Positions 7,629 through 18,484 are shown, counted from the stretch's first letter. The stretch: 24,625 bases of DNA from Synergistaceae bacterium (GCA_017458545.1 JAFTBA010000278.1:1-24625); one strand, 5' to 3'. Made by a program: numbers and translations. The notes: generated by a model not told the origin, from the letters alone.

Positions 7629-7661
7629 AAGAGGCTTGCAGAAAATTGCAGGTCTCTTTTT
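7629..7661 (+). terminator. Intrinsic terminator between convergent operons (possibly bidirectional)
   Basis: AAGAGGCTTGCA-GAAAAT-TGCAGGTCTCTT forms a 12-bp stem with two G-U pairs and runs into a T tract. It sits between two convergent stop codons. Confidence 0.7.
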
Positions 7662-8370
7662 ATCTCGACGAATAACGTAAAGGTAATTCCAAACCGTTAG
7701 CCTCAAGCAGTGATTCATCAGTGAAAAGTTCAGGCAACAAACCCTCAGCTGACACTACACCCTCGTTGAGTATCACAGCCCGTTCGCAAACATCAACAGC
7801 CATATCCAAGTCATGAGTAGCAAGCAATATAGTTCTCTTTGTTCCACGCAGAAAATTTATTACCCTCCTTCGCGCTTTAGGGTCTAATCCTGCACTAGGC
7901 TCATCAAGTACTAAAAGATCTGGTTCGGACGCTAATACCCCTGCAAATGTTACTATCCTCTTCTCACCTCCTGAAAGCCTGTGAGCCAGTCTGTCGGCAA
8001 GATGTTCAATCCCTAAATCAGAAAGTATTTTTTGAGCATGTTCACGGGCTGATAATACATTCATTCCTGAAGCAACAAAGCTAAATGATACATCCTCAAT
8101 CACCGTTGGCATCAGTATCTCATCATCCGCATTCTGGAACGTTAAGCCTACATTTTCGCGCAAGACCTCAGAGCCTTCACGACCACCGAAAATTATTCTG
8201 CCCTCCTGTACCTCTACTGCTCCTGCAATGTGCAACAGCAGCGTCGATTTACCTGAACCGTTAGCTCCTACAAGCGCAGTTTTCTCACCGTCTTTAACTC
8301 TGAGATTAACTCCCCTTAATGCCTCATGGCCGTCAGGATATTTATAGTGCAGGTCGATTACTTCAAGCAT
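7660..8370 (-). CDS. cbiO: ECF-type Co/Ni transporter ATPase (CbiO/NikO)
   Basis: GANGSGKS, FQNADD, LSGGEKR, LDEPSAGLDP, ATHDLD; follows CbiQ/CbiM homologs. Confidence 0.88.
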   Translation of the reverse strand: MLEVIDLHYKYPDGHEALRGVNLRVKDGEKTALVGANGSGKSTLLLHIAGAVEVQEGRIIFGGREGSEVLRENVGLTFQNADDEILMPTVIEDVSFSFVASGMNVLSAREHAQKILSDLGIEHLADRLAHRLSGGEKRIVTFAGVLASEPDLLVLDEPSAGLDPKARRRVINFLRGTKRTILLATHDLDMAVDVCERAVILNEGVVSAEGLLPELFTDESLLEANGLELPLRYSSR

Positions 8371-9085
8371 TATTCAGCAACACTATTCCCAAAACGTAAA
8401 ACGCATATCCAGTCATCATAACTATATCCCTGAGATTAAAACCGTCATTTTCAGACTGCTTGAAACCTCCGAAACCTCCACGGCATTTAACCGCCCTCAT
8501 AATATTCTCTGAACGTTCAGATGTCTGAAGCAGTATGTTCCCAATCATATACGCAAAAACTTTAAGCCTCATCATTCCGCTAAGTTCAGGGGCTCTGAGC
8601 TTCACTGAAGTTATTGATGAACTGTAACGCTCACTCAAAGTGTAAATCCCTCTCAGTGTCAGTATCACTAGTACACGCAATTTCATCGGAACGTTCAGCA
8701 CACACAATGCCTCATACATTCCTGCAGTCCCTAAAGGATATATCATTACACCGAACGCAACACATATCATGTTCACTCTCAGTGCTATAACCGCTCCCAT
8801 AACAAGACCGTCAATAAATATCGGCCAAGTCATAGCAAGTGTAAAAATCATTATGATGTTGACGATGTTTATTTTGACGAGGTGAGACAGCTTAAACCGT
8901 TTCGTCAATATAAACGTCAGCGGCATTAATAACGCTGTAAACAGTGCTGCTATTGAAGTGCTTATTGAAACCGCCAGCGCATAACTCAATGCACTCACAA
9001 GTACAACGGCAGGTGAGTTAGAGTTGGTGCTGTTGATGACGAGGGATTGACGCGGAAATTCAAGGGTATATATTCCTTTTGTCAT
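8363..9085 (-). CDS. cbiQ: ECF transmembrane T component (CbiQ/NikQ), divergent
   Basis: Multi-TM N-terminal half, TLRG and KCRGGF Arg motifs of T components, position between cbiM and cbiO. Confidence 0.75.
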   Translation of the reverse strand: MTKGIYTLEFPRQSLVINSTNSNSPAVVLVSALSYALAVSISTSIAALFTALLMPLTFILTKRFKLSHLVKINIVNIIMIFTLAMTWPIFIDGLVMGAVIALRVNMICVAFGVMIYPLGTAGMYEALCVLNVPMKLRVLVILTLRGIYTLSERYSSSITSVKLRAPELSGMMRLKVFAYMIGNILLQTSERSENIMRAVKCRGGFGGFKQSENDGFNLRDIVMMTGYAFYVLGIVLLNNA

Positions 9086-9681
9086 GACAGAAATTCAGGA
9101 GCTGCTCTCTTCAGCCACATCACTAAAAACATTGTTACTGCTCCCTCAACTAATGCCAACGGTACGTGAGCTATCAGCAGAATTTTGACGGCTCCGATGA
9201 AATTTCTGTCGGTCATTCCCAAAAACGCTCCTGCTAATGACGCTCCTGCCATTACCGCAAATACCCCAGCAATAAACGACATAACCCTAACATGCGCCCG
9301 TCCTTTTCCCTCACGGATTGCTTTGCCGAAAATTACATGTGTCAGAAGCGCAGCTCCTCCCATCACAAAAGTGTTAGCTCCCAAAACTAACAATCCTCCG
9401 AAATGAAACAGCAATGCCTGAAGCATTAACGCAACAAGTACAGCAGGAAATACAGAATTACCCAGAATAATTCCCATTGGTGCAAGCAATGACAAATGAG
9501 TTGATGAAGGACCTATACGGACGTTCACCAGTGAGGCCAGGAAAAATGCTGACGAGATTAACGCGGTTCTCACGGTCTTGTCGGTGTCAGTGTGTTTAAG
9601 ACCGTAAGCAGTCCCTATAATAGTACCTGCCCAGCACGTAACAAGAACACTTCCCGATAATATCCCCTCACTGATGTGCAT
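9082..9681 (-). CDS. cbiM: ECF S component CbiM/NikM
   Basis: N-terminal MHISEG metal-binding motif, second His in SSTHL, HFGGLLVLGAN, about 6-7 TM segments. Confidence 0.9.
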   Translation of the reverse strand: MHISEGILSGSVLVTCWAGTIIGTAYGLKHTDTDKTVRTALISSAFFLASLVNVRIGPSSTHLSLLAPMGIILGNSVFPAVLVALMLQALLFHFGGLLVLGANTFVMGGAALLTHVIFGKAIREGKGRAHVRVMSFIAGVFAVMAGASLAGAFLGMTDRNFIGAVKILLIAHVPLALVEGAVTMFLVMWLKRAAPEFLS

Positions 9682-10132
9682 GGCGTTTCCTCATGATTAA
9701 CATTGAAATGTTGAAGATGATACTCACTCCGAGTAATGCCCTCACTAAAAGCTCAGTCCCTCCGTATAATCCAATCTCCTCATGTGAGAGGGCTTTGTCC
9801 TCGTCGTCAGCAGTAATCTCAATTTCGGCTGTACACTGATGACCCTCCTCATCACGTACGATTACGCGCCACGTCCCTGCAACGTCGGGTACAAACGCAA
9901 AACGTCCTACCTCATCCGTCCTCCCTGACTGAAACGCATACTTCTCATCTTTCGGCGAATACACTTTTGCTTCGCGGTAACTCATCTTCTCACCGGTCGA
10001 GTACATAAACTCAAGCGCAACAGCTCTCAGTTCTGAACGCCTGTAACCCGTACCGTGTGCAGAAAGTTTATCCGTTGAAAAAAGCATCAGGCTCACCGTT
10101 AAGGCAAGCCCGATGAAAATCTTTGACCTCAT
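9668..10132 (-). CDS. NikL/CbiL-like accessory Ni/Co uptake protein (signal peptide, beta domain, C-terminal anchor)
   Basis: LSA-HG predicted cleavage exposes His, QSGRTDEVGRFAFVPDVAGTWRV prealbumin-like fold motif, single C-terminal TM, operon context. Confidence 0.65.
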   Translation of the reverse strand: MRSKIFIGLALTVSLMLFSTDKLSAHGTGYRRSELRAVALEFMYSTGEKMSYREAKVYSPKDEKYAFQSGRTDEVGRFAFVPDVAGTWRVIVRDEEGHQCTAEIEITADDEDKALSHEEIGLYGGTELLVRALLGVSIIFNISMLIMRKRHAHQ

Positions 10133-10920
10133 TACTTCACCCTGAACAGTAAGAACGCCCTGAGATTAAGATTGTCATAATCCCCTTCGACTCCCGGTAA
10201 TCCCGCCTGAGCTGCCCTTATTCCCCAAAGTCCGGGCGCAGTGATTTTGATGTGTGCTTCGCCGTTCTCAGCCTCCGTGTAATAAGCGTAGGTGTTCTCG
10301 TACTCGGTAACAAATCCGTCATATGTTGCCCATACCGGCCCCGTGTAAGGCTGACCGTTAAGCAGTATTTTCACGTGGAAATACTCACCGACTTTAGCGT
10401 CAGCAGGGTTCGTAACAGGAATAACCTCCAACGGATGACCGAGTACCAGAGCAAAATTCTTATCGTCATGCGAGGTGTTGAATATTGCTTTCGCGTACTT
10501 GTCGTACTTGTTGGCAGATATTACCTTGAGACCCTGAGCTTCAAGGTCTTTCCTTGCGCCCGATTTACCGCCCTCATTGGTTACGCACCACGACTCGCCG
10601 TCCTTAGTCGCAACAAGTATCACTGACTTCGACAAATCTTTGGGAGTAACAACGAAATTAATGCAAAGCCCTTTTTCGTTTGCGACAAGCTCGGAGGGAA
10701 CAAATTTCCCGTCCTCAATGATTCCTGCTTTGACACGTTCGAGAATCTCTACCTCTTCGGGAACTATAAACCTGTGTGCTGACTGTACCGTCGCTACAAA
10801 TGGCTGTCCTTCCTTCATGGCTTCATTCTCGGCCTTGATTGTCAGTTCGTGTGCGAACGCAGGAAGTGATGAGAGCGTAAGCACTGTTACAAGTGCAGGG
10901 ATAAGAAAACGTTTCAACAT
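10132..10920 (-). CDS. DUF4198-family (NikK-like) periplasmic metal-uptake accessory protein
   Basis: Signal peptide AFA-HE, KYAKAI, GHPLEVIPVTNP, LLNGQP, GEAHIKITAPGLW; first gene of the cbiMQO cluster. Confidence 0.75.
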   Translation of the reverse strand: MLKRFLIPALVTVLTLSSLPAFAHELTIKAENEAMKEGQPFVATVQSAHRFIVPEEVEILERVKAGIIEDGKFVPSELVANEKGLCINFVVTPKDLSKSVILVATKDGESWCVTNEGGKSGARKDLEAQGLKVISANKYDKYAKAIFNTSHDDKNFALVLGHPLEVIPVTNPADAKVGEYFHVKILLNGQPYTGPVWATYDGFVTEYENTYAYYTEAENGEAHIKITAPGLWGIRAAQAGLPGVEGDYDNLNLRAFLLFRVK

Positions 10921-10983: not shown

Positions 10984-12099
10984 TTACTGTCTCATTACGC
11001 ACTCAGCCCAAAATTTTGCAGCGTTACAGTTTCCCATTGATGAACGCGCTTTCTCCAGTGCCGTATCAGTTTCGTTCTTAACTCTCTCATCGTTCAAGTA
11101 CCTTCCGAGTTCCTGAACAATTCGCTCTGGGGTTGCGTCATCGCATAACAGTTCGGGGTAAACCTGTTTATCCGTCAGCATGTTAGGTATTGAAATGTTG
11201 CTGACGTGAACAAGCCGTTTGAGTATCGCGTAGTTAAGTCGCTTCATGTTATAGATGACTACCATGTAACGCCTTAACAGCATCGCCTCAACAGCAACTG
11301 TTCCCGATACCCCTGCTGCAGCTAATGAACCCATCATCAATTCCCTTCCGCTTCCCTCCCAAAGCTCAAACCCCGACTCATTTACCCTCGTTCGCAGTTC
11401 ATCGGCAAGATCTTTACTCAAACCCTGAGCAACTGAGAACACAGGCAAATATCCTTCAGCCTTGAGCCTCTTGGCAGTTCCCAGCAGAATATCAAGGTGA
11501 AATTTTATGTCGTAACGTCTGCTTCCCGGCATGAGGGCTATAACTTTTTTGTTGACGAATCGGTTTCGGAACTCATCGGAGATTTTAACGCCCTCCAATT
11601 CGTGAACAAGAGGATGAGATTTCCAGAACGATTTAACCCCGTTTACCGTCAAAAATTCGTGTTCAAACAAAAATAACGGCAGACTAAAATCAAAATCCCT
11701 CTTCAAATTCTTCACCCTTCCTGAACGCCATGCCCATACTGTTGGAGGTATCAATGAAATTATCTTCCCCTTATACCCAGAACTCCTTAATGATTTCGCA
11801 AGCATTAAATGAAAATCAGGGCAGTCAGTCAACACTACTGCGTCAGGTTTTACCCTCATAATTTCACGCGTTATGTTACGTTTTAATCTCAGTATTCGGG
11901 GGATTGCAGGTATGATTTCAAGTATTCCCATCAGCTTTAACTCCTCGTAACTCCATACAGCTTTACCCCCTGAGTTAATGCTCTCAGTTCCCAACATACC
12001 CCAAATTTCTGTTGACGGGGCTATACTCAATATTTCACGGATTAAACTTCCTGCGTAAATATCTCCGCTCACTTCTCCGCATGACACAAATATATTCAT
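10984..12099 (-). CDS. lpxB: Lipid-A-disaccharide synthase
   Basis: CGEVSGD, TDCPDFHL, PPTVWAWRSGR, HPL, LMPGSR, SGTVAVEAML, ISIPNML. Confidence 0.93.
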   Translation of the reverse strand: MNIFVSCGEVSGDIYAGSLIREILSIAPSTEIWGMLGTESINSGGKAVWSYEELKLMGILEIIPAIPRILRLKRNITREIMRVKPDAVVLTDCPDFHLMLAKSLRSSGYKGKIISLIPPTVWAWRSGRVKNLKRDFDFSLPLFLFEHEFLTVNGVKSFWKSHPLVHELEGVKISDEFRNRFVNKKVIALMPGSRRYDIKFHLDILLGTAKRLKAEGYLPVFSVAQGLSKDLADELRTRVNESGFELWEGSGRELMMGSLAAAGVSGTVAVEAMLLRRYMVVIYNMKRLNYAILKRLVHVSNISIPNMLTDKQVYPELLCDDATPERIVQELGRYLNDERVKNETDTALEKARSSMGNCNAAKFWAECVMRQ

Positions 12100-13763
12100 G
12101 AGTTATATTTCTCCCTGTCAATCATATTCCCTCCGTCAGCAGCTATAACTGTACACGCTATATTTCCCATACAAGTTGTAGGTGTGTTGAACAGGTCTTC
12201 GAGTGCCTCAGTGCTTATCGCTATCCCAAGAAATTCAAGCGGACAACCTGTCTGCGTAAATAATGCTGACATTGATATTATCCCTGCTCCGGGTAACCCT
12301 GGTGTTGAAACCGTAAGCACTATTATTGAAAACGCAAGCGATATTAATGACGAAACTGACATTTCAACACCGTACATGTTCGCACCTGAAAGCGTTAAAA
12401 TCGCAAACGTTATCGGAAATCCTGCCTTGCATATTGACGTGGTTAATGGTATTGAAAGTGAGTAAACTTTCCGCGATATTCCCATATCCTCACAGCACTT
12501 CATACCGTCAGGGATTGCCGCTATGCTTGAACATGTACTGAATGCAGTTATTATCACCGGAAGGGATTTTCTCAGCATAACAAAAGGACTTAAACCGGTA
12601 CTCAGTTTCACTGCTATACACATAAAAATGTTCAGCAAAACATATGCAAAAATAAACGTCAGCAATATCCCAATTACTGACACTATAGTCTCAAGCCCTG
12701 TAGTTATTACCATTGAGGCTATAGAACAGAATATAGCCAGCGGAACTATCAGCATAAATATTCTCGTAGCCCTCATGAATACTGCTGTCAGTTCACCGAA
12801 AACATCCCGCAGAACTTTCGCTCCTGCTACGCCGACAGATATTCCGATAATTACTGCTATGACCATTATTTGAAGCATATCAGCCTCAAGCAGCGGTCTC
12901 ACTATATTCTCAGGAACTAAGTTCATCAGCATTCCAGTTAATGATAACGTTTCGGCCTGTACAGCCTCAACTGATGACGATGCAGTCAGTCTTACTCCTT
13001 TGCCTGTCCCGAATAAATATACAGATCCGAAAGCTATGGCAGTGCTTGCTGTCTGGAACAAAACTATATATTTCAATAGTCTTCCGCCCGATTTCTGAAG
13101 CCCTGAAGTACTGCCCATACCTGAAAGACAAGTTATTATCGAGAACAGCACTACAGGTACTGAACACATTTTCAGGCCGTTCATGAAGACAGTTCTGACA
13201 GGAGTGAATATATTATTGTTGACTGCCATGTAAACGTTCTCAGGGAAAAATTCCTTGAGTACTACTCCTGACACTACAGCAGCGAATAATATAGTCAATA
13301 TTTTGTACAGCCCTGAGTAATTCGAGAGCATAGCTTTGATGCGTACAGTATTAAACCTGCGGTAATGCTTATACCTCAGGTAACGGCTGAACGAACGAAG
13401 CAAAATACTTTGAACTGCTGCCTGTGTCTCTGACAGTTCATCATCATCATCATCAGCGTGATACTCGACTTCAGCGTTACCGTAAAAATCAAACTCATTA
13501 CCCGGTACTTTTATGTCAACGATTACATCTCCGAAAACTTTTCCGATGTTGACGACGAAATGTGACAGTTCCGAAAAATCTGCGTGTTTTAACAGCGTTG
13601 TCATTGTCTCCTCGCACATCAGCACGGCTCTGTCAGTGTCTTTAACGCTGAGTTTCATTTCGCCTAAACTCTCACGGATAAATCCGAGTGCTTCAGACAA
13701 TAATTTTTCAGTTTCAGCTTTAGTTCCGGTTCCGGTTCCAATAACCGTAAATTTTTTGAGCAT
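12096..13763 (-). CDS. DAACS (dicarboxylate/amino acid:cation symporter) family protein with N-terminal degenerate HATPase-like domain, paralog 2
   Basis: FMNGLKMCSVPVVLFSII, NLVPENI, HP1 AFSTCSSIAAIP, HP2 PGLPGAG. About 150-aa extra N-terminal domain. ATG 13763 (MLKKF) chosen because it aligns with the MQKKF start of the paralog. Confidence 0.85.
   Translation of the reverse strand: MLKKFTVIGTGTGTKAETEKLLSEALGFIRESLGEMKLSVKDTDRAVLMCEETMTTLLKHADFSELSHFVVNIGKVFGDVIVDIKVPGNEFDFYGNAEVEYHADDDDDELSETQAAVQSILLRSFSRYLRYKHYRRFNTVRIKAMLSNYSGLYKILTILFAAVVSGVVLKEFFPENVYMAVNNNIFTPVRTVFMNGLKMCSVPVVLFSIITCLSGMGSTSGLQKSGGRLLKYIVLFQTASTAIAFGSVYLFGTGKGVRLTASSSVEAVQAETLSLTGMLMNLVPENIVRPLLEADMLQIMVIAVIIGISVGVAGAKVLRDVFGELTAVFMRATRIFMLIVPLAIFCSIASMVITTGLETIVSVIGILLTFIFAYVLLNIFMCIAVKLSTGLSPFVMLRKSLPVIITAFSTCSSIAAIPDGMKCCEDMGISRKVYSLSIPLTTSICKAGFPITFAILTLSGANMYGVEMSVSSLISLAFSIIVLTVSTPGLPGAGIISMSALFTQTGCPLEFLGIAISTEALEDLFNTPTTCMGNIACTVIAADGGNMIDREKYNS
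13438..13455. repeat. (TCA)6 trinucleotide run encoding an acidic DDDDDE tract
   Basis: Six consecutive TCA on +; the minus strand reads gct gat gat gat gat gat gaa. Confidence 0.9.
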
Positions 13764-13784
13764 AATGAATAACAAACTCCTTTC

Positions 13785-15428
13785 TTAAGGACGGTTATAC
13801 TGTTCCCTGTCAATAAGATTACCGCTCGAAGCTGCCAGAAGTGTACAGACTATATGCCCCAGACATACAAGCACAGTCGCAGTAAAATCCGTCAATATAT
13901 CAATAGGTACTACTATTCCGATAAACTCAACAGGACATCCGAACTCACTGAAAAGTACTGACAGTGTTATCAGCCCCGCACCGAATATTGAAGGAGTTGC
14001 TATCGACATCAAAGACGACATTAATATAAGCATTATGATTGATACAGGAGGAATGTTAATACCGTAAAGATTTGACGCTGAAATCACTATCGTTACGTAA
14101 TACGCAGCACTGTATACCTTATTCACAGATGTTGCAAGAGGGATTGAAAATGAATACAATGAAGGTGAAATACCCATAGCAGCACAGCTCTTCAGGCCGT
14201 CAGGAATAGCAGCTGTACTTGTACATGTACTGAAAGCAGTTATCAGCATTGGCGCGGATTTCCTCAGCATTGTTAAGGGACTTAGTTTTGCTGAAAACTT
14301 CACCAGAAAACAGAGTGCTATCGCCGTTACTATATGCCCCCCAATAACTGTACATATTATGCCTGCCAATGATGACAAAGTTCCCGTTCCCGTTACAATA
14401 ATCATTGAGGCTGCGGAACAGAACATTACGGGGACAATAAATTTCAGGAAAAATCCCATTATCTTCATGAATATCATATCGACTTCGCCTGAAAATTTCC
14501 GTACACATTTAGCGTCCGTAACTGATACTGCAAATCCTGCCATGAACGCAAGCACAATTAACTGAAGCATATTGCCCTCAAGAAACGGCCTGAAAATATT
14601 TCCAGCAACTAAATCTGTAAACATACCGATTAATGATACTGACTTAACGTTAACCGTCTCTCCTGAAGTTAAAGGGATATTAACACCCGTGCCCGGCCTG
14701 AATATATATATTGAGCACAAGCCTACAATAAGTCCGATAATCTTGCATATCACGAAATACTTGAAGAGAGTTCCGCAAGTTTTCTTTATTCCCGAAAGCC
14801 CTCCCATATCTGCAACGCATGACATAACAGAGCAAAATACTATAGGAACTGCGCACATTCCGAGACCGTTAAGGAAAACAGTGCGTACAGGGACAAGTAT
14901 ATTATTGTTGACCGCCATGCAGACGCTCTCAGGAGCAAAAGACCTCAGCGCAAGGCCTGACGCTACTGCCAGGAACAATGCCGTCAATGTCCTGTACAGC
15001 CCCGAATAATAAGACTGCACAGCCTTTATGCTCACAGTGTTGAAATCCCCCGAATGCCTGTAGCTCATATAGTGTGTGAACGGACGAAGTACTAGACGAC
15101 GAATTGCCCCGTAAGAGTTCAGAATATCATCGTTACTCTTCAGCACGGAAACATCAGCAGGACTCAAAAATTCAAACTCATTGCCCGGTACTGCCAAATC
15201 AATAATCACATCACCGAAAACTTTTCGTATATTCACCCGTAAATACCCTGTTCCCGAAAAATCAGAATGGTTTATCAGGGTCAGTAACGTCTCTTCGCAC
15301 ATCAGTTCGGTACGGAGTGAGTCTTTCGTTTTCAGCTTCATTGCTCCGAGCTGTTCACGGATAAATCCGAGTGCCTCAGCCAATCCGCAGTCATCAGCTT
15401 TACCTGTAACATCAAATTTCTTCTGCAC
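13785..15428 (-). CDS. DAACS family protein with N-terminal degenerate HATPase-like domain, paralog 1
   Basis: FLNGLGMCAVPIVFCSV, GNIFRPFLEGNMLQLIV, HP1 AFSTCTSTAAIP, HP2 IFGAG. N-terminal domain closely matches that of 12096-13763. GTG start overlaps the lpxI 3' end. Confidence 0.85.
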   Translation of the reverse strand: MQKKFDVTGKADDCGLAEALGFIREQLGAMKLKTKDSLRTELMCEETLLTLINHSDFSGTGYLRVNIRKVFGDVIIDLAVPGNEFEFLSPADVSVLKSNDDILNSYGAIRRLVLRPFTHYMSYRHSGDFNTVSIKAVQSYYSGLYRTLTALFLAVASGLALRSFAPESVCMAVNNNILVPVRTVFLNGLGMCAVPIVFCSVMSCVADMGGLSGIKKTCGTLFKYFVICKIIGLIVGLCSIYIFRPGTGVNIPLTSGETVNVKSVSLIGMFTDLVAGNIFRPFLEGNMLQLIVLAFMAGFAVSVTDAKCVRKFSGEVDMIFMKIMGFFLKFIVPVMFCSAASMIIVTGTGTLSSLAGIICTVIGGHIVTAIALCFLVKFSAKLSPLTMLRKSAPMLITAFSTCTSTAAIPDGLKSCAAMGISPSLYSFSIPLATSVNKVYSAAYYVTIVISASNLYGINIPPVSIIMLILMSSLMSIATPSIFGAGLITLSVLFSEFGCPVEFIGIVVPIDILTDFTATVLVCLGHIVCTLLAASSGNLIDREQYNRP

Positions 15429-16230
15429 AGTTCACACCCCAAACTGCTATGTTATACTTGTCGGCAAGCTCAAAGAATTTTTCAGGCTCTAAAATTAATG
15501 TTTTACCTGCTTCTACTCCCAGACATGTTAATCCTGCTTTTCTCATGTTATCGAGCGTTACTGTTCCTACGGTAGGCAAATCGTACCTCATATCCTGAGT
15601 TGCTTTCATCATTTTAACGACAACTCCCCTGCCCGAAATTTCACCCGAACGCTCTATCATTTTGTCAGTACCTTCCATAGCCTCGACAGCAACTACTGCC
15701 CCGTCAGCAATACAAACAGCCTGACCGAATGAGCACGGCAAAGTTACCCTCAAAATTTCCCGGCCGTAAGCTATATCACTGAGTTCTTTTTCTGTCGGTG
15801 AACGGGATGATAATTTACCTGATGACGCTATAAATTCGGGGAGTATCTGCCAATAAGGTATTACCTGAATATTCTCGTCCTCGCAAGCCTTCACTACAGC
15901 CCCTAAAAGTGAATGGTCATCCCTCAAACTCCTGCGCAATACTGAGCGCGTCAGTCTGTCGAAAAGAAGAGGCAGGCAGTAAATCACCTTCTTAGGTATA
16001 CGTCCTGCCATTATTACTTTGTCAGCACCGAATGATTTTACTTCACGTATTCCGCGCCCTAAACTAGGCGTTCTCATTCGGATTAATTTTCCCTCATCCC
16101 CTGCAAACTGTCTCAAGGTTTCAGGGTCATCACGCAGGGCTAATATGAGTGTTGACGGCTGAAGGCTCATCAGTTTACGCGCGATCTCAACAGGTAATAT
16201 CCCTTCACCGGCTACAAGTGCTATGCTCAA
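15412..16230 (-). CDS. lpxI: UDP-2,3-diacylglucosamine diphosphatase LpxI
   Basis: VAGEGILP, GQAV, AVEAMEGTD, VKMMKATQDMRYDLPTVG; near lpxB. Confidence 0.9.
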   Translation of the reverse strand: MSIALVAGEGILPVEIARKLMSLQPSTLILALRDDPETLRQFAGDEGKLIRMRTPSLGRGIREVKSFGADKVIMAGRIPKKVIYCLPLLFDRLTRSVLRRSLRDDHSLLGAVVKACEDENIQVIPYWQILPEFIASSGKLSSRSPTEKELSDIAYGREILRVTLPCSFGQAVCIADGAVVAVEAMEGTDKMIERSGEISGRGVVVKMMKATQDMRYDLPTVGTVTLDNMRKAGLTCLGVEAGKTLILEPEKFFELADKYNIAVWGVNCAEEI

Positions 16231-17333
16231 ATCCTGTCGACCCTCCGCGCGAAATACAATGCTGCGAACAGGAACACTATGTTAGGTCCCCATCCTGCTA
16301 TGAACGGAGGTAATGACCCTGCTTCGCCCAAAGCCCTGCACAATGACATGACGACATAGTAAGCAAACACTATAACTACGCTTATGCCGAAACCTACACC
16401 TCCACCTGACCTGCCTTTTCTCGAAGCACCGAATGACGCTCCTAATACTGCCATGATTACGCACGCCCAAGGGATAGCGGTCTTCAAATGGAACATAACC
16501 CAGAGTTCGGACAACTGAGAGTCTATAGCTTCGCCCTGTTTAATGTAACTCCATAATTCATGCGCACTCATATCGGCAGGTCTTCTGGTACTCCTCTGCA
16601 GCTGTTCAGGGGAAAGCCTTAATGCTAACATCTGACGCTCGAACCTCAGCAGTAAATTCACTTCACCTTCAGCATTAACGTCATACATTCTGCCGTCCTC
16701 TATCCACCATTGGGAGTTCTGCCACATTCCGCGCCTTGCGTTGAGAGTGTGAGAGAGTCTGCCTTCATTGTCGAACTCGTGCATCATTATTCCCCTGAGT
16801 ATTCCTTTGTCGGGGTCAAGCTCATCAATGTAGAGTACACGTTTCAGTTTTCCGCCCTCTTCATCGCGCAGGAACACTTTTTCCTGAATGACTGATGCCT
16901 GATTCTTCATTATCTCGAACTTCATCAGCCTGTCAGCAGCTATTGCCCCGAAAGGCACAACAGTCTCATTAAGGCCGAACCCTATGAGTGAAATCAGGAT
17001 TGACGCGAAGAATACGGGTCTTAATATTCTGGTGAAAGGTATTCCCAATGACCTGAGCGCGATTAATTCGCTTGCGCCGTTAAGGGTTGACATTCCGAGA
17101 AGTGTTGAGAGCAATGAGGACATAGGTATAGTCATCACTACGACTTCAGGCAGACGGTAGAAGAACAGTCTGGTTACCACTCCGAACGCAACGCCCTGTT
17201 CAATGATTAACTTGGCCGCCTGGAACAGCAAATCACCTGCAACAAATATCAATACGAAAATTAATATCCCGAACATGAACGGCCCAGCACATGCACCGAG
17301 TATTAATTTGTTTAATAGGCTTCTTCTAATCAT
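16227..17333 (-). CDS. lptF: LPS export ABC permease, LptF/LptG (YjgP/YjgQ) family
   Basis: RLPEVVVMTIPMSSLL, SELIALRSLGI, periplasmic beta-jellyroll (ARRGMW, WWIEDG), GFGISVVIVFAYY, AGWGPN. Cannot distinguish LptF from LptG. Confidence 0.88.
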   Translation of the reverse strand: MIRRSLLNKLILGACAGPFMFGILIFVLIFVAGDLLFQAAKLIIEQGVAFGVVTRLFFYRLPEVVVMTIPMSSLLSTLLGMSTLNGASELIALRSLGIPFTRILRPVFFASILISLIGFGLNETVVPFGAIAADRLMKFEIMKNQASVIQEKVFLRDEEGGKLKRVLYIDELDPDKGILRGIMMHEFDNEGRLSHTLNARRGMWQNSQWWIEDGRMYDVNAEGEVNLLLRFERQMLALRLSPEQLQRSTRRPADMSAHELWSYIKQGEAIDSQLSELWVMFHLKTAIPWACVIMAVLGASFGASRKGRSGGGVGFGISVVIVFAYYVVMSLCRALGEAGSLPPFIAGWGPNIVFLFAALYFARRVDRI

Positions 17334-18484
17334 TGTGTTAAGGCTGTCGCAGAATATTTGCGTGTCATCTGGTTAGTGAGTTTGTCAACAAGCTCCTGAG
17401 CCGTAGGAAGATTAGTACCCCCCTCGTAAGTCTCGCTGACATTCAGAACAGTTACATGAAGGAACTCTTCAAACGTTGCGCATAATGAGTTGACAATTAG
17501 CGTAAGCCTTTCGATTATGCCGTCAACCATCTGATAAGGGCATTCCGAGAGTACACCGATAATCTGAAACTCTCCTGCCTGTATAACCGTATCGGTCTGC
17601 CTTATATCTTTCCTTACGCTCTCACAGTAAGCCCTGAAAGGTCTGACATATCTGCCCATGTCATCATCGGGCAGCAGTTGAGGGAATACAAGCCTTATCA
17701 TGAACGCGCTCACAGGATGGTTATATCTTCCTGCCCTGTATAACTCATCGGCAATCCTCGCCATTCCGTAACGGTATGAATGAAGCTGCGTATCAGGATC
17801 TGTGAACTCAGCTGCTTCACTGTTACCGGCTCTTGAAGTTGCCTCAGCATTCTCTATAGGCAGTCCTTTGGGGTTAAGCTCGAAATAGAATCTTTTCCCG
17901 TCAGCTATACTCTTGCGTTCAATGTCCCAGATTTTACCGTTAATTTCAGCAGTTGTTGATACGGGACTGAACCAGTCGCTTATATTTTTGCCGACAGAGT
18001 CCATTCTTGAAATGTCGAGAACATCAAGCATGTTTTCAGTGAGATTCATTATTGCCCCTGTGTTGTCGGTAATTACGAAGTTTAACGGTAACTGTTTAAC
18101 GTCATCGGCAATTTCAACGGGGACAATTTTATTGCGTTCGTTCTCTTCCTGATTGTAAGCGACCAGTAAGGCAGCAGCACCGCATACGGCAATTATCACG
18201 CCGAGCCACTGAAACATTCTTGCTCCGTAAGTGATGGCCATAGGGCATAACAGTACACCCTGAGCCAATGCCTGAAGCGATATTAACCCTACATTGAAAC
18301 CGTGAATGATAAACAGGCCGTAGAGAATGCTCATGATGATGAACAGCAGCCATACTAATCCCCATACGGCCAAGTCAACTTCACCGACAACGCTGCCCGT
18401 ACCCATTGCGCGCGCAAGCATTATGGTTAAGATTGCTACAACGGGAGGGATAGTTATCCATTTGAGAAAGTTGTTCTGTCCCAT
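17330..18484 (-). CDS. Membrane protein with 4 TM, PAS-like domain and degenerate GGDEF domain retaining RxxD
   Basis: Four hydrophobic segments (aa ~9-110). PAS-like LPLNFVITDNTGAI...VGKNISDWF. GGDEF-like start TDPDTQLHS...ELYRAGRYNHPVSAFMI, then IRQTDTVIQAGEFQ. Confidence 0.72.
   Translation of the reverse strand: MGQNNFLKWITIPPVVAILTIMLARAMGTGSVVGEVDLAVWGLVWLLFIIMSILYGLFIIHGFNVGLISLQALAQGVLLCPMAITYGARMFQWLGVIIAVCGAAALLVAYNQEENERNKIVPVEIADDVKQLPLNFVITDNTGAIMNLTENMLDVLDISRMDSVGKNISDWFSPVSTTAEINGKIWDIERKSIADGKRFYFELNPKGLPIENAEATSRAGNSEAAEFTDPDTQLHSYRYGMARIADELYRAGRYNHPVSAFMIRLVFPQLLPDDDMGRYVRPFRAYCESVRKDIRQTDTVIQAGEFQIIGVLSECPYQMVDGIIERLTLIVNSLCATFEEFLHVTVLNVSETYEGGTNLPTAQELVDKLTNQMTRKYSATALTQ

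Follow-up and report, generated by a model that had tools for sequence, protein, structure and literature searches.

The window, a stretch of 24,625 nt from a Synergistaceae bacterium (GCA_017458545.1, JAFTBA010000278.1:1-24625), carries two tandem fusion genes on the minus strand, whose products share 47% identity along their entire length (E 1e-178). The upstream gene, copy 2 (13785..15428, minus strand), encodes 547 aa from a GTG start that agrees with the MQKKF start of its homologues. For the downstream gene, copy 1 (12096..13763, minus strand), the listed ORF begins at TTG 13775, but the start is most likely ATG 13763, giving 555 aa, because GGAG lies 13 nt upstream of it and the homologues begin with MLKKF or MQKKF. 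In the same operon and on the same strand, lpxI for UDP-2,3-diacylglucosamine hydrolase (15412..16230; Pfam LpxI_N and LpxI_C) lies immediately upstream of the pair and lpxB for lipid-A-disaccharide synthase (10984..12099; Pfam LpxB, 243 bits) immediately downstream, and lptF/G also belong to this operon. The lpxI stop and the copy 2 GTG share an overlap of 17 nt, and the copy 1 TGA overlaps the lpxB ATG as ATGA. Short contigs from RNA libraries match parts of both fusion genes at 97-100% identity, giving weak evidence of expression.

Each gene encodes an N-terminal domain of about 140 residues followed by a full-length SDF/DAACS core. About 150 extra N-terminal residues had been predicted for both ORFs, and indeed both ORFs were confirmed, with SDF beginning at residue 145 or 158 and no Pfam match before it.

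Fold of the N-terminal domain

The N-terminal domain comprises residues 1-140 of copy 2 (15009..15428, minus strand; from AF2 models and fold matches) and residues 1-144 of copy 1 (13332..13763, minus strand; family profile E 5e-67). The two are 51% identical, in line with the close likeness that the original prediction had pointed out. Pfam gave no match, HATPase_c_2 included, for the N-terminal ~145 residues of either window protein even at E<=10. Two AF2 models of the domain (pLDDT 74 and 86.6) have the topology b-a-a-b-b-loop-a-b-b, a Bergerat-type alpha/beta sandwich with the RsbW topology. Their best Foldseek matches were SpoIIAB, UsfX, SiaB and RsbW, with E-values of 1.2e-5 to 9e-4 and TM-scores of up to 0.72 against SpoIIAB and UsfX, the highest TM-score of the better model (0.72) being that to UsfX. 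The exhaustive VIA search gave Z-scores of 11.9 for the RsbW domain of Rv1364c, 11.3 for UsfX, 10.9 for RsbW and 10.6 for SpoIIAB, but only about 6.5 for the CA domains of histidine kinases. Structural neighbours in the ESM Atlas and AFDB were HATPase_c_2 proteins and SDF proteins with the same N-terminal domain (TM 0.82; A0A172RX48).

Of 62 family members, 21 gave weak matches to PF13581 (HATPase_c_2) at E<=0.01, the best with E 6.7e-8; one relative, P0102, reached 28.4 bits, exceeding the gathering cut-off of 27.4 bits. Since such relatives match the profile and the window domains do not, homology to HATPase_c_2 is supported only transitively. These matches, together with the models, support an RsbW/SpoIIAB-type fold (GHKL, HATPase_c_2-type) for the domain, much as had been proposed for a non-catalytic domain of this type on a DAACS fold; a non-GHKL fold would have gone against the original prediction, and the models gave the RsbW-type GHKL fold instead. 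The linker is very short in the models, where the last strand of the domain stops at residue 137 and a helix of residues 142-149 continues into TM1. By homology to the GltPh topology, the domain is probably cytoplasmic.

Lost and retained motifs

The motif register was taken from a profile alignment of the N-terminal domain family to RsbW, in which E46 corresponds to the N-box Glu, position 50 to the Asn, H54 to the His and V80-P81-G82 to D-E-G. This alignment reproduced exactly the register proposed before (Glu, Asn replaced by Thr, His, DxG replaced by VPG, GxG missing), and the strings EETLLTLINH, EETMTTLLKH and VPGNEF were all found in the copies to which they had been assigned. The degenerate N-box is EETLLTLINH in copy 2 (15267..15296; E46, Thr50 replacing Asn, H54) and EETMTTLLKH in copy 1 (13584..13613), and the degenerate G1 box is VPGNEFEF in copy 2 (15168..15191; V80-P81-G82 replacing D-x-G) and VPGNEFDF in copy 1 (13485..13508). 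All four are on the minus strand and were placed by locating the strings in the sequence, those of copy 2 also having the RsbW register behind them.

The N-box Asn of E-x3-N, a ligand of Mg2+-ATP, is Thr in both copies and variable (T/S/N/R/K and others) over the 62 members. The adenine-binding Asp of the G1 box D-x-G-x-G is missing in 62/62 aligned members, with V-P-G in both copies, and the glycines of the G2 box and ATP lid are missing in 62/62 as well, where GGLGLYL of RsbW aligns with AIRxLLRSF; the loop before the G2 position is acidic and of low pLDDT. G82, the Gly of the G1 box, and E45 are invariant in the 62 sequences, and L42, E46 and G72 are conserved at 90% or more across the family. 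Judging from these residues, the domain probably does not bind ATP. E45, E46 and G82 would line the former nucleotide pocket, which may still bind a ligand of some kind, conceivably a nucleotide in an atypical mode.

Carrier core

The SDF/DAACS core (Pfam PF00375) lies at 13830..14996 in copy 2 (residues 145-533; 228 bits) and at 12138..13304 in copy 1 (residues 158-546 of the ORF as listed from TTG 13775; 243 bits), both on the minus strand and both covering profile positions 3-385 of 387. The Ser-rich HP1 motif is kept in both copies as STC(S/T)S(I/T)AAIPDG, and the HP2 hairpin motif is kept as PGLPGAG in copy 1 and PSIFGAG in copy 2. In TM7, NMDGT, the motif that coordinates Na+ and substrate, is replaced by NKVYS in copy 2 (14109..14123, minus strand; alignment to PDB 9bgz and family table) and by ICKAG in copy 1 (12420..12434, minus strand; family motif table), and nearly all members of the Fretibacterium-type group, to which the pair belongs, have Lys at the Met position of NMDGT. 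The TM8 motif D..R T..N...D, which with the TM3 pair stands for the Na1/Na3 sites and the binding of the substrate carboxylate, retains the first Asp (D394 equivalent) in both copies, while the equivalent of R397 is replaced by Ala or Asn, that of N401 by Val or Thr and that of D405 by His or Asn; the Thr/Ser pair of TM3 (T-T/S) is replaced by C-K or F-Q. The Fretibacterium-type lineage has lost the acidic Na1/Na3 residues as well as the substrate Arg. The NCBIfam models for DctA, GltP and SstT scored 82-111 bits, far below their cut-offs (308-638 bits).

The original prediction had spoken of a DAACS symporter. The full-length SDF fold bears out the first part of this name, but 'symporter' is doubtful for the window pair because the Na+ and substrate residues are lost. 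From the replaced residues, the pair probably carries a different solute without Na+ coupling, and it may not transport at all, as neither Na+ site is left and the substrate Arg is missing too. Distant members of the fusion family keep the canonical NMDGT carrier; therefore, the N-terminal domain arose on working transporters.

A family of fusions

Across 30 close homologues the N-terminal domain is conserved, with a mean column identity of 52% and 16 invariant columns, and in a set of 1.84 billion proteins its family comprises 97 clusters when grouped at 50% identity; therefore, the resemblance is not by chance. All 60 proteins of at least 500 aa in the family set align as N-terminal domain plus SDF core, and Pfam found SDF in 18 of 20 fusion-length or intermediate matches. 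Among the matches long enough to judge, the domain was seen only fused to SDF carriers. At the level of sequence, it is a family of its own. The fusion occurs beyond the window locus, and the family also takes in canonical carriers in other phyla. Our literature search, which addressed the possibility raised beforehand of an already characterised family, found no paper on an RsbW-like domain joined to an SDF carrier, and the fusion family is previously undescribed.

Discussion

We give about even chances to a model in which the N-terminal domain controls the carrier as a non-catalytic module for binding or regulation. The domain would act on the carrier from the cytoplasmic side and without enzymatic activity, held against the scaffold helix TM1 in a predicted contact. 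Its ligand could be a small molecule or a partner protein, whose binding would allow or prevent the elevator motion of the transport domain. The rewritten Na+ and substrate sites of Fretibacterium-type carriers would then reflect a different solute and the loss of Na+ coupling. There is a precedent in Mycobacterium smegmatis, where neither RsbW1, the orthologue of UsfX, nor RsbW3 phosphorylates RsfB, but SigF is bound by RsbW1 (PMC7693655), so that RsbW-type proteins are able to act by binding alone. A working carrier may also be backed by the retained HP1 and HP2, the full-length SDF and the metabolic neighbourhoods of sister paralogues, which adjoin citrate lyase CitDEF and TctA, Fe-ADH and flavodoxin, or a LysR regulator. 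An RsbW-type protein is dimeric and a DAACS carrier trimeric, and this mismatch in geometry counts against a regulatory module.

Alternatively, the protein may be a sensor rather than mainly a transporter, relaying the occupancy of the carrier through the RsbW-like domain, which would capture or release a STAS antagonist or a sigma factor. The fold is specifically of the RsbW/SpoIIAB/UsfX subtype known to bind STAS proteins and sigma factors, the kinase-less mycobacterial members still work by binding (PMC7693655), and the rewritten substrate and ion sites would fit a carrier turned sensor. Moreover, the genome encodes a small STAS protein of 105 aa, one true RsbW-like kinase and two SpoIIE phosphatases, all of them away from the fusion genes. 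It had been suggested to look in other genomes for the architecture and for STAS or sigma genes beside it; the architecture did recur, in the 97 clusters, but no STAS, sigma or PP2C gene adjoins any of about 25 fusion loci examined, the sole nearby case being a SpoIIE and HATPase_c_2 pair about 4 kb from one canonical fusion on the opposite strand. With the fully canonical carriers of distant members and the metabolic look of the paralogue neighbourhoods, this makes such a relay unlikely.

The domain may instead be a relic that does no more than help the carrier to fold, to enter the membrane or to oligomerise, and that conveys no signal, which would agree with the loss of all catalytic motifs and with its lower conservation than the carrier in canonical fusions (24% vs 36%). 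However, in the Fretibacterium-type group the domain exceeds the carrier core in conservation (52.5% vs 48.1% mean pairwise identity), and the residues conserved family-wide, from invariant E45 and G82 to L42, E46 and G72, stand at GHKL ligand-binding positions. A purely structural part is thus quite unlikely.

With regard to lipid A, the pair, which lies between lpxI and lpxB with translational coupling, might take part in the synthesis, either by scaffolding or regulating the peripheral enzymes LpxI and LpxB at the membrane through the RsbW-like domain or by moving a precursor. The arrangement of lpxI, one to three fusion copies and lpxB persists where the fusion proteins share only ~42-60% identity and even where the flanking genes differ, and the lpx-embedded copies form one clade. 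This retention, with overlapping stop and start codons at both ends and lptF/G in the operon, hints at an envelope-tied role that a regulatory module leaves unaccounted for. On the other hand, nothing but a gap of 18-110 nt separates lpxI from lpxB in every other Synergistaceae genus sampled, and the same holds for 12 of 21 same-genus species with computable gaps (G036, G044, G046, G053, G065, G074, G076, G087, G090, G098, G101 and G116), and some genomes with adjacent lpxI and lpxB carry fusion genes elsewhere. A conserved tie to lpx genes across taxa was not found, the insertion being confined to one clade of one genus. Gene order in the sampled genomes shows the place between lpxI and lpxB to be one lineage-specific insertion, followed by tandem duplication. 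Sister paralogues lie in unrelated metabolic contexts, LpxK is present in the genome, so there is no missing lipid A step to fill, and lipid handling is not known for any DAACS member. We regard a role in lipid A synthesis as decidedly unlikely.

It is improbable that the kinase-dead domain makes a Na+-uncoupled DAACS fold into a membrane sensor that is read by capture or release of STAS, a sigma factor, LpxI or LpxB. If true, it would tie solute sensing to lipid A (envelope) synthesis in rumen Synergistaceae and would provide a partner-switching input of a previously undescribed kind. Kinase or ATPase activity through an unconventional nucleotide site is hardly credible, despite the retained general-base-like Glu (E46) and central G1 Gly (G82), as all 62 aligned members lack the Asp that would bind adenine and the glycines of the G2 lid, the Mg-binding Asn is not kept and the window domains have no HATPase_c_2 match.

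A non-catalytic module on a carrier, our preferred model, can be set beside several known systems. The SpoIIAB/RsbW Ser kinases share with the N-terminal domain the fold, the topology, the size of about 140 aa (Z 10.6-10.9; Foldseek E down to 1.2e-5) and a profile alignment in register, with the conserved Glu, His, central Gly and F-D/E-F after G1. They possess the N-box Asn, G1 Asp and G2 glycines, which the window domains lack, and they are soluble dimers, whereas the N-terminal domain is covalently joined to a membrane carrier with no STAS or sigma gene adjoining. UsfX and the M. smegmatis RsbW1 and RsbW3 have the same RsbW fold, and for them the loss of kinase function with binding kept is on record (PMC7693655). 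They are free cytoplasmic proteins encoded beside sigF, whereas gene context suggests no such partner for the N-terminal domain. The carriers GltPh, GltTk, DctA and SstT share with the window pair the full-length SDF core, HP1/HP2 and the D394 equivalent, but in the pair the equivalents of NMDGT, the TM3 Thr/Ser pair, R397, N401 and D405 of GltPh-type carriers are replaced. Alignments to GltPh, GltTk and the other solved DAACS chains begin only at query residue ~141; therefore, these chains have no such N-terminal domain, as the original prediction held for characterised DAACS members. STAS proteins are the natural ligands of RsbW-type proteins. SLC26/SulP transporters are described as carrying a STAS domain (PMC8256260). 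With this domain at the C-terminus, the SulP/SLC26 carrier is joined to the other half of the partner-switching pair, and it differs from the window fusion in its carrier fold, in bearing an antagonist domain instead of an anti-sigma fold and in bearing it at the opposite terminus, which makes the two architectures conceptual mirror images.

Results

Two tandem genes on the minus strand encode the fusion proteins. The upstream one (copy 2, 13785-15428) is an ORF of 547 aa. The downstream one (copy 1), listed as an ORF at 12096-13775, most likely starts at the ATG at 13763, giving 555 aa; a GGAG 13 nt before this ATG and homologues with the N-terminus MLKKF or MQKKF favour this start. The two proteins are 47% identical over their full length (E 1e-178). 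Pfam recognized a single domain in each, SDF (PF00375; 228 bits in copy 2 and 243 bits in copy 1), and this match spans profile positions 3-385 of 387 in both copies, beginning at residue 145 of copy 2 and at residue 158 of copy 1 (ORF as listed). The ORF calls and the start of the SDF match confirm the original observation of about 150 extra N-terminal residues before the DAACS core, and the motif strings quoted in it were located at the expected places in both genes. The alignments of solved DAACS carriers, including GltPh and GltTk, begin only at query residue ~141, and these carriers therefore lack the N-terminal extension, as had been stated for characterized DAACS members.

Sequence databases gave little for the N-terminal part: the first ~145 residues of both proteins had no Pfam match even at E<=10, NCBIfam matched only the carrier part and far below the cut-offs, and the only PDB matches that phmmer returned for the N-domain were spurious ones to Rho N-terminal sequences (E 0.15). 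A first AF2 model of the N-domain, built from an alignment of 30 close homologues (pLDDT 74), predicts a strand, two helices, a beta-hairpin, a disordered acidic loop, a helix, another beta-hairpin and then a helix running into TM1 through a very short connection. The top Foldseek matches of this model in PDB were only SpoIIAB, SiaB, UsfX and RsbW (TM 0.57-0.69, lowest E 2.5e-4). VIA, an exhaustive search independent of Foldseek, ranked the RsbW domain of Rv1364c (Z 11.9), UsfX (11.3), RsbW (10.9) and SpoIIAB (10.6) above LvrC and SiaB (8-9) and the CA domains of histidine kinases (~6.5). A second model, for which 62 sequences from across the wider family were aligned, was of higher confidence (pLDDT 86.6, pTM 0.78) and led to the same fold (SpoIIAB E 1.2e-5; UsfX TM 0.72). 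Neighbours in the ESM Atlas and AFDB were HATPase_c_2 proteins and also other SDF proteins with the same N-domain. Moreover, Pfam HATPase_c_2 matched 21 of the 62 family members at E<=0.01 (best E 6.7e-8), and a full-length relative, P0102, scored 28.4 bits against the cut-off of 27.4. Foldseek, VIA and both models thus agree on the proposed RsbW/SpoIIAB-like fold, and the outcome that would have spoken against it, a non-GHKL fold, was not obtained.

A weak alignment of the family profile to RsbW of B. subtilis (E 0.66) gives the motif register that had been proposed. In this alignment, with copy 2 numbering, E46 corresponds to the N-box Glu, position 50 to the Mg-binding Asn, H54 to the His, V80-P81-G82 to D-E-G and F-E-F to F-D-F, while the G2 segment GGLGL falls on AIRxLLRSF. 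The ATP site is degenerate throughout the family, as it is in the two copies: the N-box Asn and the G1 Asp occur in none of the 62 members. E45 and G82 are invariant in them, and L42, E46 and G72 are conserved in at least 90%. By its sequence, the N-domain falls outside the catalytic HATPase_c_2 domains. The RsbW-type fold, the register and the family-wide loss of the Asn and the G1 Asp argue that it belongs to the GHKL superfamily, on the RsbW/SpoIIAB branch, as a divergent and kinase-dead member.

A phmmer search of 1.84 billion representative proteins yielded 97 clusters at 50% identity. In the alignment, all 60 proteins of at least 500 aa consist of the N-domain and an SDF core that has recognizable carrier motifs (SDF was found by Pfam in 10 of 10 submitted), and no fusion of the N-domain to anything but SDF was found among family members. 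Stand-alone matches of ~125-150 aa were considered as true kinases ancestral to the N-domain and rejected, as they show the same degenerate motifs. Most probably, short contigs encode only the N-terminal part in these cases, since 8 of 10 intermediate-length matches that were checked are likewise truncated SDF fusions (the other two gave no match). Apart from this family, the N-terminal domain of AFDB A0A6L7WUY2 ('Xanthine/uracil/vitamin C permease', 399 aa) is structurally similar (TM 0.56), and so other carrier families may also be fused to RsbW-like domains.

The N-domain was present in 28 of 201 genomes sampled from the phylum. Among these are 24 of 37 same-genus genomes and one genome from another genus of the family, besides two weak matches elsewhere in the phylum. 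A search for related loci with alignment A1 returned only Synergistaceae/Fretibacterium MAGs from goat and sheep gut. The few taxon labels among Atlas neighbours suggest that the relatives with canonical cores are largely Bacillota.

The best solved relative of the carrier part is 9bgz (E 5e-44). NMDGT, the Thr-Thr/Ser pair of TM3 and N..GD of TM8 are all present in distant fusions, among them P0069, P0073, P0089, P0102, P0103 and P0106. In the Fretibacterium-type group, the lineage of our pair, the NMDGT position reads NKVYS in copy 2 and ICKAG in copy 1, and nearly all members have Lys in place of the Met. The TM3 pair and the Arg, Asn and last Asp of TM8 are also replaced in this group, which retains HP1, HP2 and the first Asp of TM8. 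Our two carriers are SDF members by profile but do not have the Na+ and substrate sites expected of the family. Since the distant fusions are canonical and the Fretibacterium-type ones are not, the N-domain arose on ordinary Na+-type carriers, with the ion and substrate site rebuilt later in the Fretibacterium-type lineage. For this group, the database name 'dicarboxylate/amino acid:cation symporter' probably misstates the substrate as well as the coupling.

Both genes lie in a minus-strand operon encoding a DUF4139 protein, a 384-aa protein, LptF/G, LpxI, copy 2, copy 1 and LpxB, and this order is repeated in relatives even at loci with different downstream genes. The GTG of copy 2 overlaps the final 17 nt of lpxI, and the TGA of copy 1 overlaps the ATG of lpxB in the sequence ATGA. 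Pfam did not match the 384-aa ORF (17330-18484, minus strand; cluster 'unk383'), which follows the DUF4139 gene and precedes lptF/G and is conserved in this position in 7 related loci. Just downstream of lpxB (7660-10920, minus strand) are genes for DUF4198, a 154-aa unknown protein, CbiM, CbiQ and an ABC ATPase, a Ni/Co-type ECF uptake set kept in several relatives and missing in others. In four sheep or gut metatranscriptome runs, short contigs matched parts of both fusion genes, lpxI and lptF/G at 97-100% identity; this is weak evidence for transcription, since RNA libraries can contain DNA and none of these contigs spans a gene junction.

The insertion history was traced in 81 genomes of the family from the distance that separates the LpxI match from the LpxB match. 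The two genes are adjacent (gap 18-110 nt) in every other genus sampled and in 12 of the 21 same-genus species for which a gap was obtained (G036, G044, G046, G053, G065, G074, G076, G087, G090, G098, G101 and G116). One fusion copy lies between them in G017, G041, G059 and G111 (~1.4-1.7 kb), two in G015, G016, G027 and our genome G000 (~3.3 kb), and three in G040 (~4.7 kb); in G009 a contig break splits the locus, which therefore yields no gap size. At the G040 locus (C7:87939-94015) the middle copy has a frame of only 457 aa, and at the G041 locus (C21:2793-5580; 1.4-kb gap) the single copy is shortened, with a frame of 463 aa. FastTree, with the canonical fusions as the root, placed all lpx-embedded copies in one clade, with P0035 and P0045 (context of both unknown) in or beside it. 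The single clade and the gap states point to one insertion between lpxI and lpxB, followed by tandem duplication and loss. These gaps and the contexts of 20 further loci led us to reject the idea that all family members are linked to lpx genes.

We also rejected the GHKL-like domain as a substitute for a missing lipid A kinase, because LpxK is present (268 bits). The open frame that contains this match (G000:C356:1333-2322) has 739 aa, double the normal size of LpxK, and may represent a fusion to another envelope enzyme.

Other same-genus paralogues, all with non-canonical cores, occur in four further settings: with citrate lyase (CitD/E/F-like) and TctA, with Fe-alcohol dehydrogenase and flavodoxin, with a LysR regulator and an MBL hydrolase, and with DAGK and a DnaJ-like gene. 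At two loci (L046, G087:C101; L057, G199:C9) the paralogue is flanked on one side by a citrate lyase operon (CitD ACP, CitE and a 523-aa ORF at the CitF position, assigned by position only) and on the other by the TctA tricarboxylate-transporter gene, which hints that the substrate of this branch is a tri- or dicarboxylate. Beside Fe-alcohol dehydrogenase/flavodoxin, the fusion gene is split into ORFs of 219 and 350 aa (L062, G165:C55) or 225 and 302 aa (L063, G017:C5), and these look like decaying paralogues.

Discussion

We consider, with about an even chance, that the N-domain is a non-enzymatic binding module regulating the carrier. From the topology of GltPh, whose N-terminus we take to be cytoplasmic and joined to the scaffold part, the N-domain would be cytoplasmic and attached to the scaffold of its carrier. 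A cytoplasmic ligand or protein would bind the conserved EE/G pocket and, for example, permit or block elevator movement. The domain would work like RsbW, SpoIIAB and UsfX. The metabolic neighbourhoods of the sister paralogues support a working carrier. Mycobacteria provide documented examples of RsbW-type proteins that have no kinase activity and act solely through binding (PMC7693655).

Alternatively, the protein could be a transceptor feeding a partner-switching pathway. Elsewhere in the genome there are a 140-aa HATPase_c_2 protein, a bona fide RsbW-like kinase by its profile match (86 bits), beside two SpoIIE phosphatases (G000:C206:6662-9261) and, on a separate contig, a 105-aa STAS protein (G000:C52:1965-2243), a predicted conventional partner-switching set. 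No STAS, sigma-factor or PP2C gene adjoins the lpx-embedded or paralogue loci examined, and we regard the transceptor as unlikely. The N-domain is under strong sequence constraint: mean pairwise identity in the Fretibacterium-type group is 52.5% for the N-domain versus 48.1% for the carrier core, while the canonical group is reversed (24% versus 36%). Beside this constraint on one hand and the lost catalytic residues on the other, a purely structural relic seems rather improbable. A role linked to lipid A synthesis, set against both the repeated operon order and the many species with adjacent lpxI and lpxB, is to us a quite doubtful one. An unconventional active kinase, with an RsbW-like fold and an ATP site degenerate in every member, is very improbable.

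Among elevator transporters, the DAACS/SLC1-fold carriers belong to the best studied, yet we know of no cytoplasmic regulatory domain in their characterized bacterial members. Full-text literature searches found no paper describing the N-domain and SDF architecture, and nothing relevant on Synergistetes lpxI/lpxB or on the NMDGT-to-Lys change. Here, a known carrier fold and a known regulatory fold are joined in an undescribed, dedicated combination. A dedicated, kinase-dead RsbW-fold domain on TM1 would be a new means of control for an elevator carrier, or a new use of such a carrier as a sensor. Moreover, family members range from canonical NMDGT carriers to forms in which Lys occupies the Na+ site, a natural series that could reveal how Na+ coupling gets lost or replaced. 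The modelled N-domain is a structural relative of RsbW, SpoIIAB and UsfX, and its fusion to SDF is the mirror image of the SulP/SLC26 carriers with a STAS domain.
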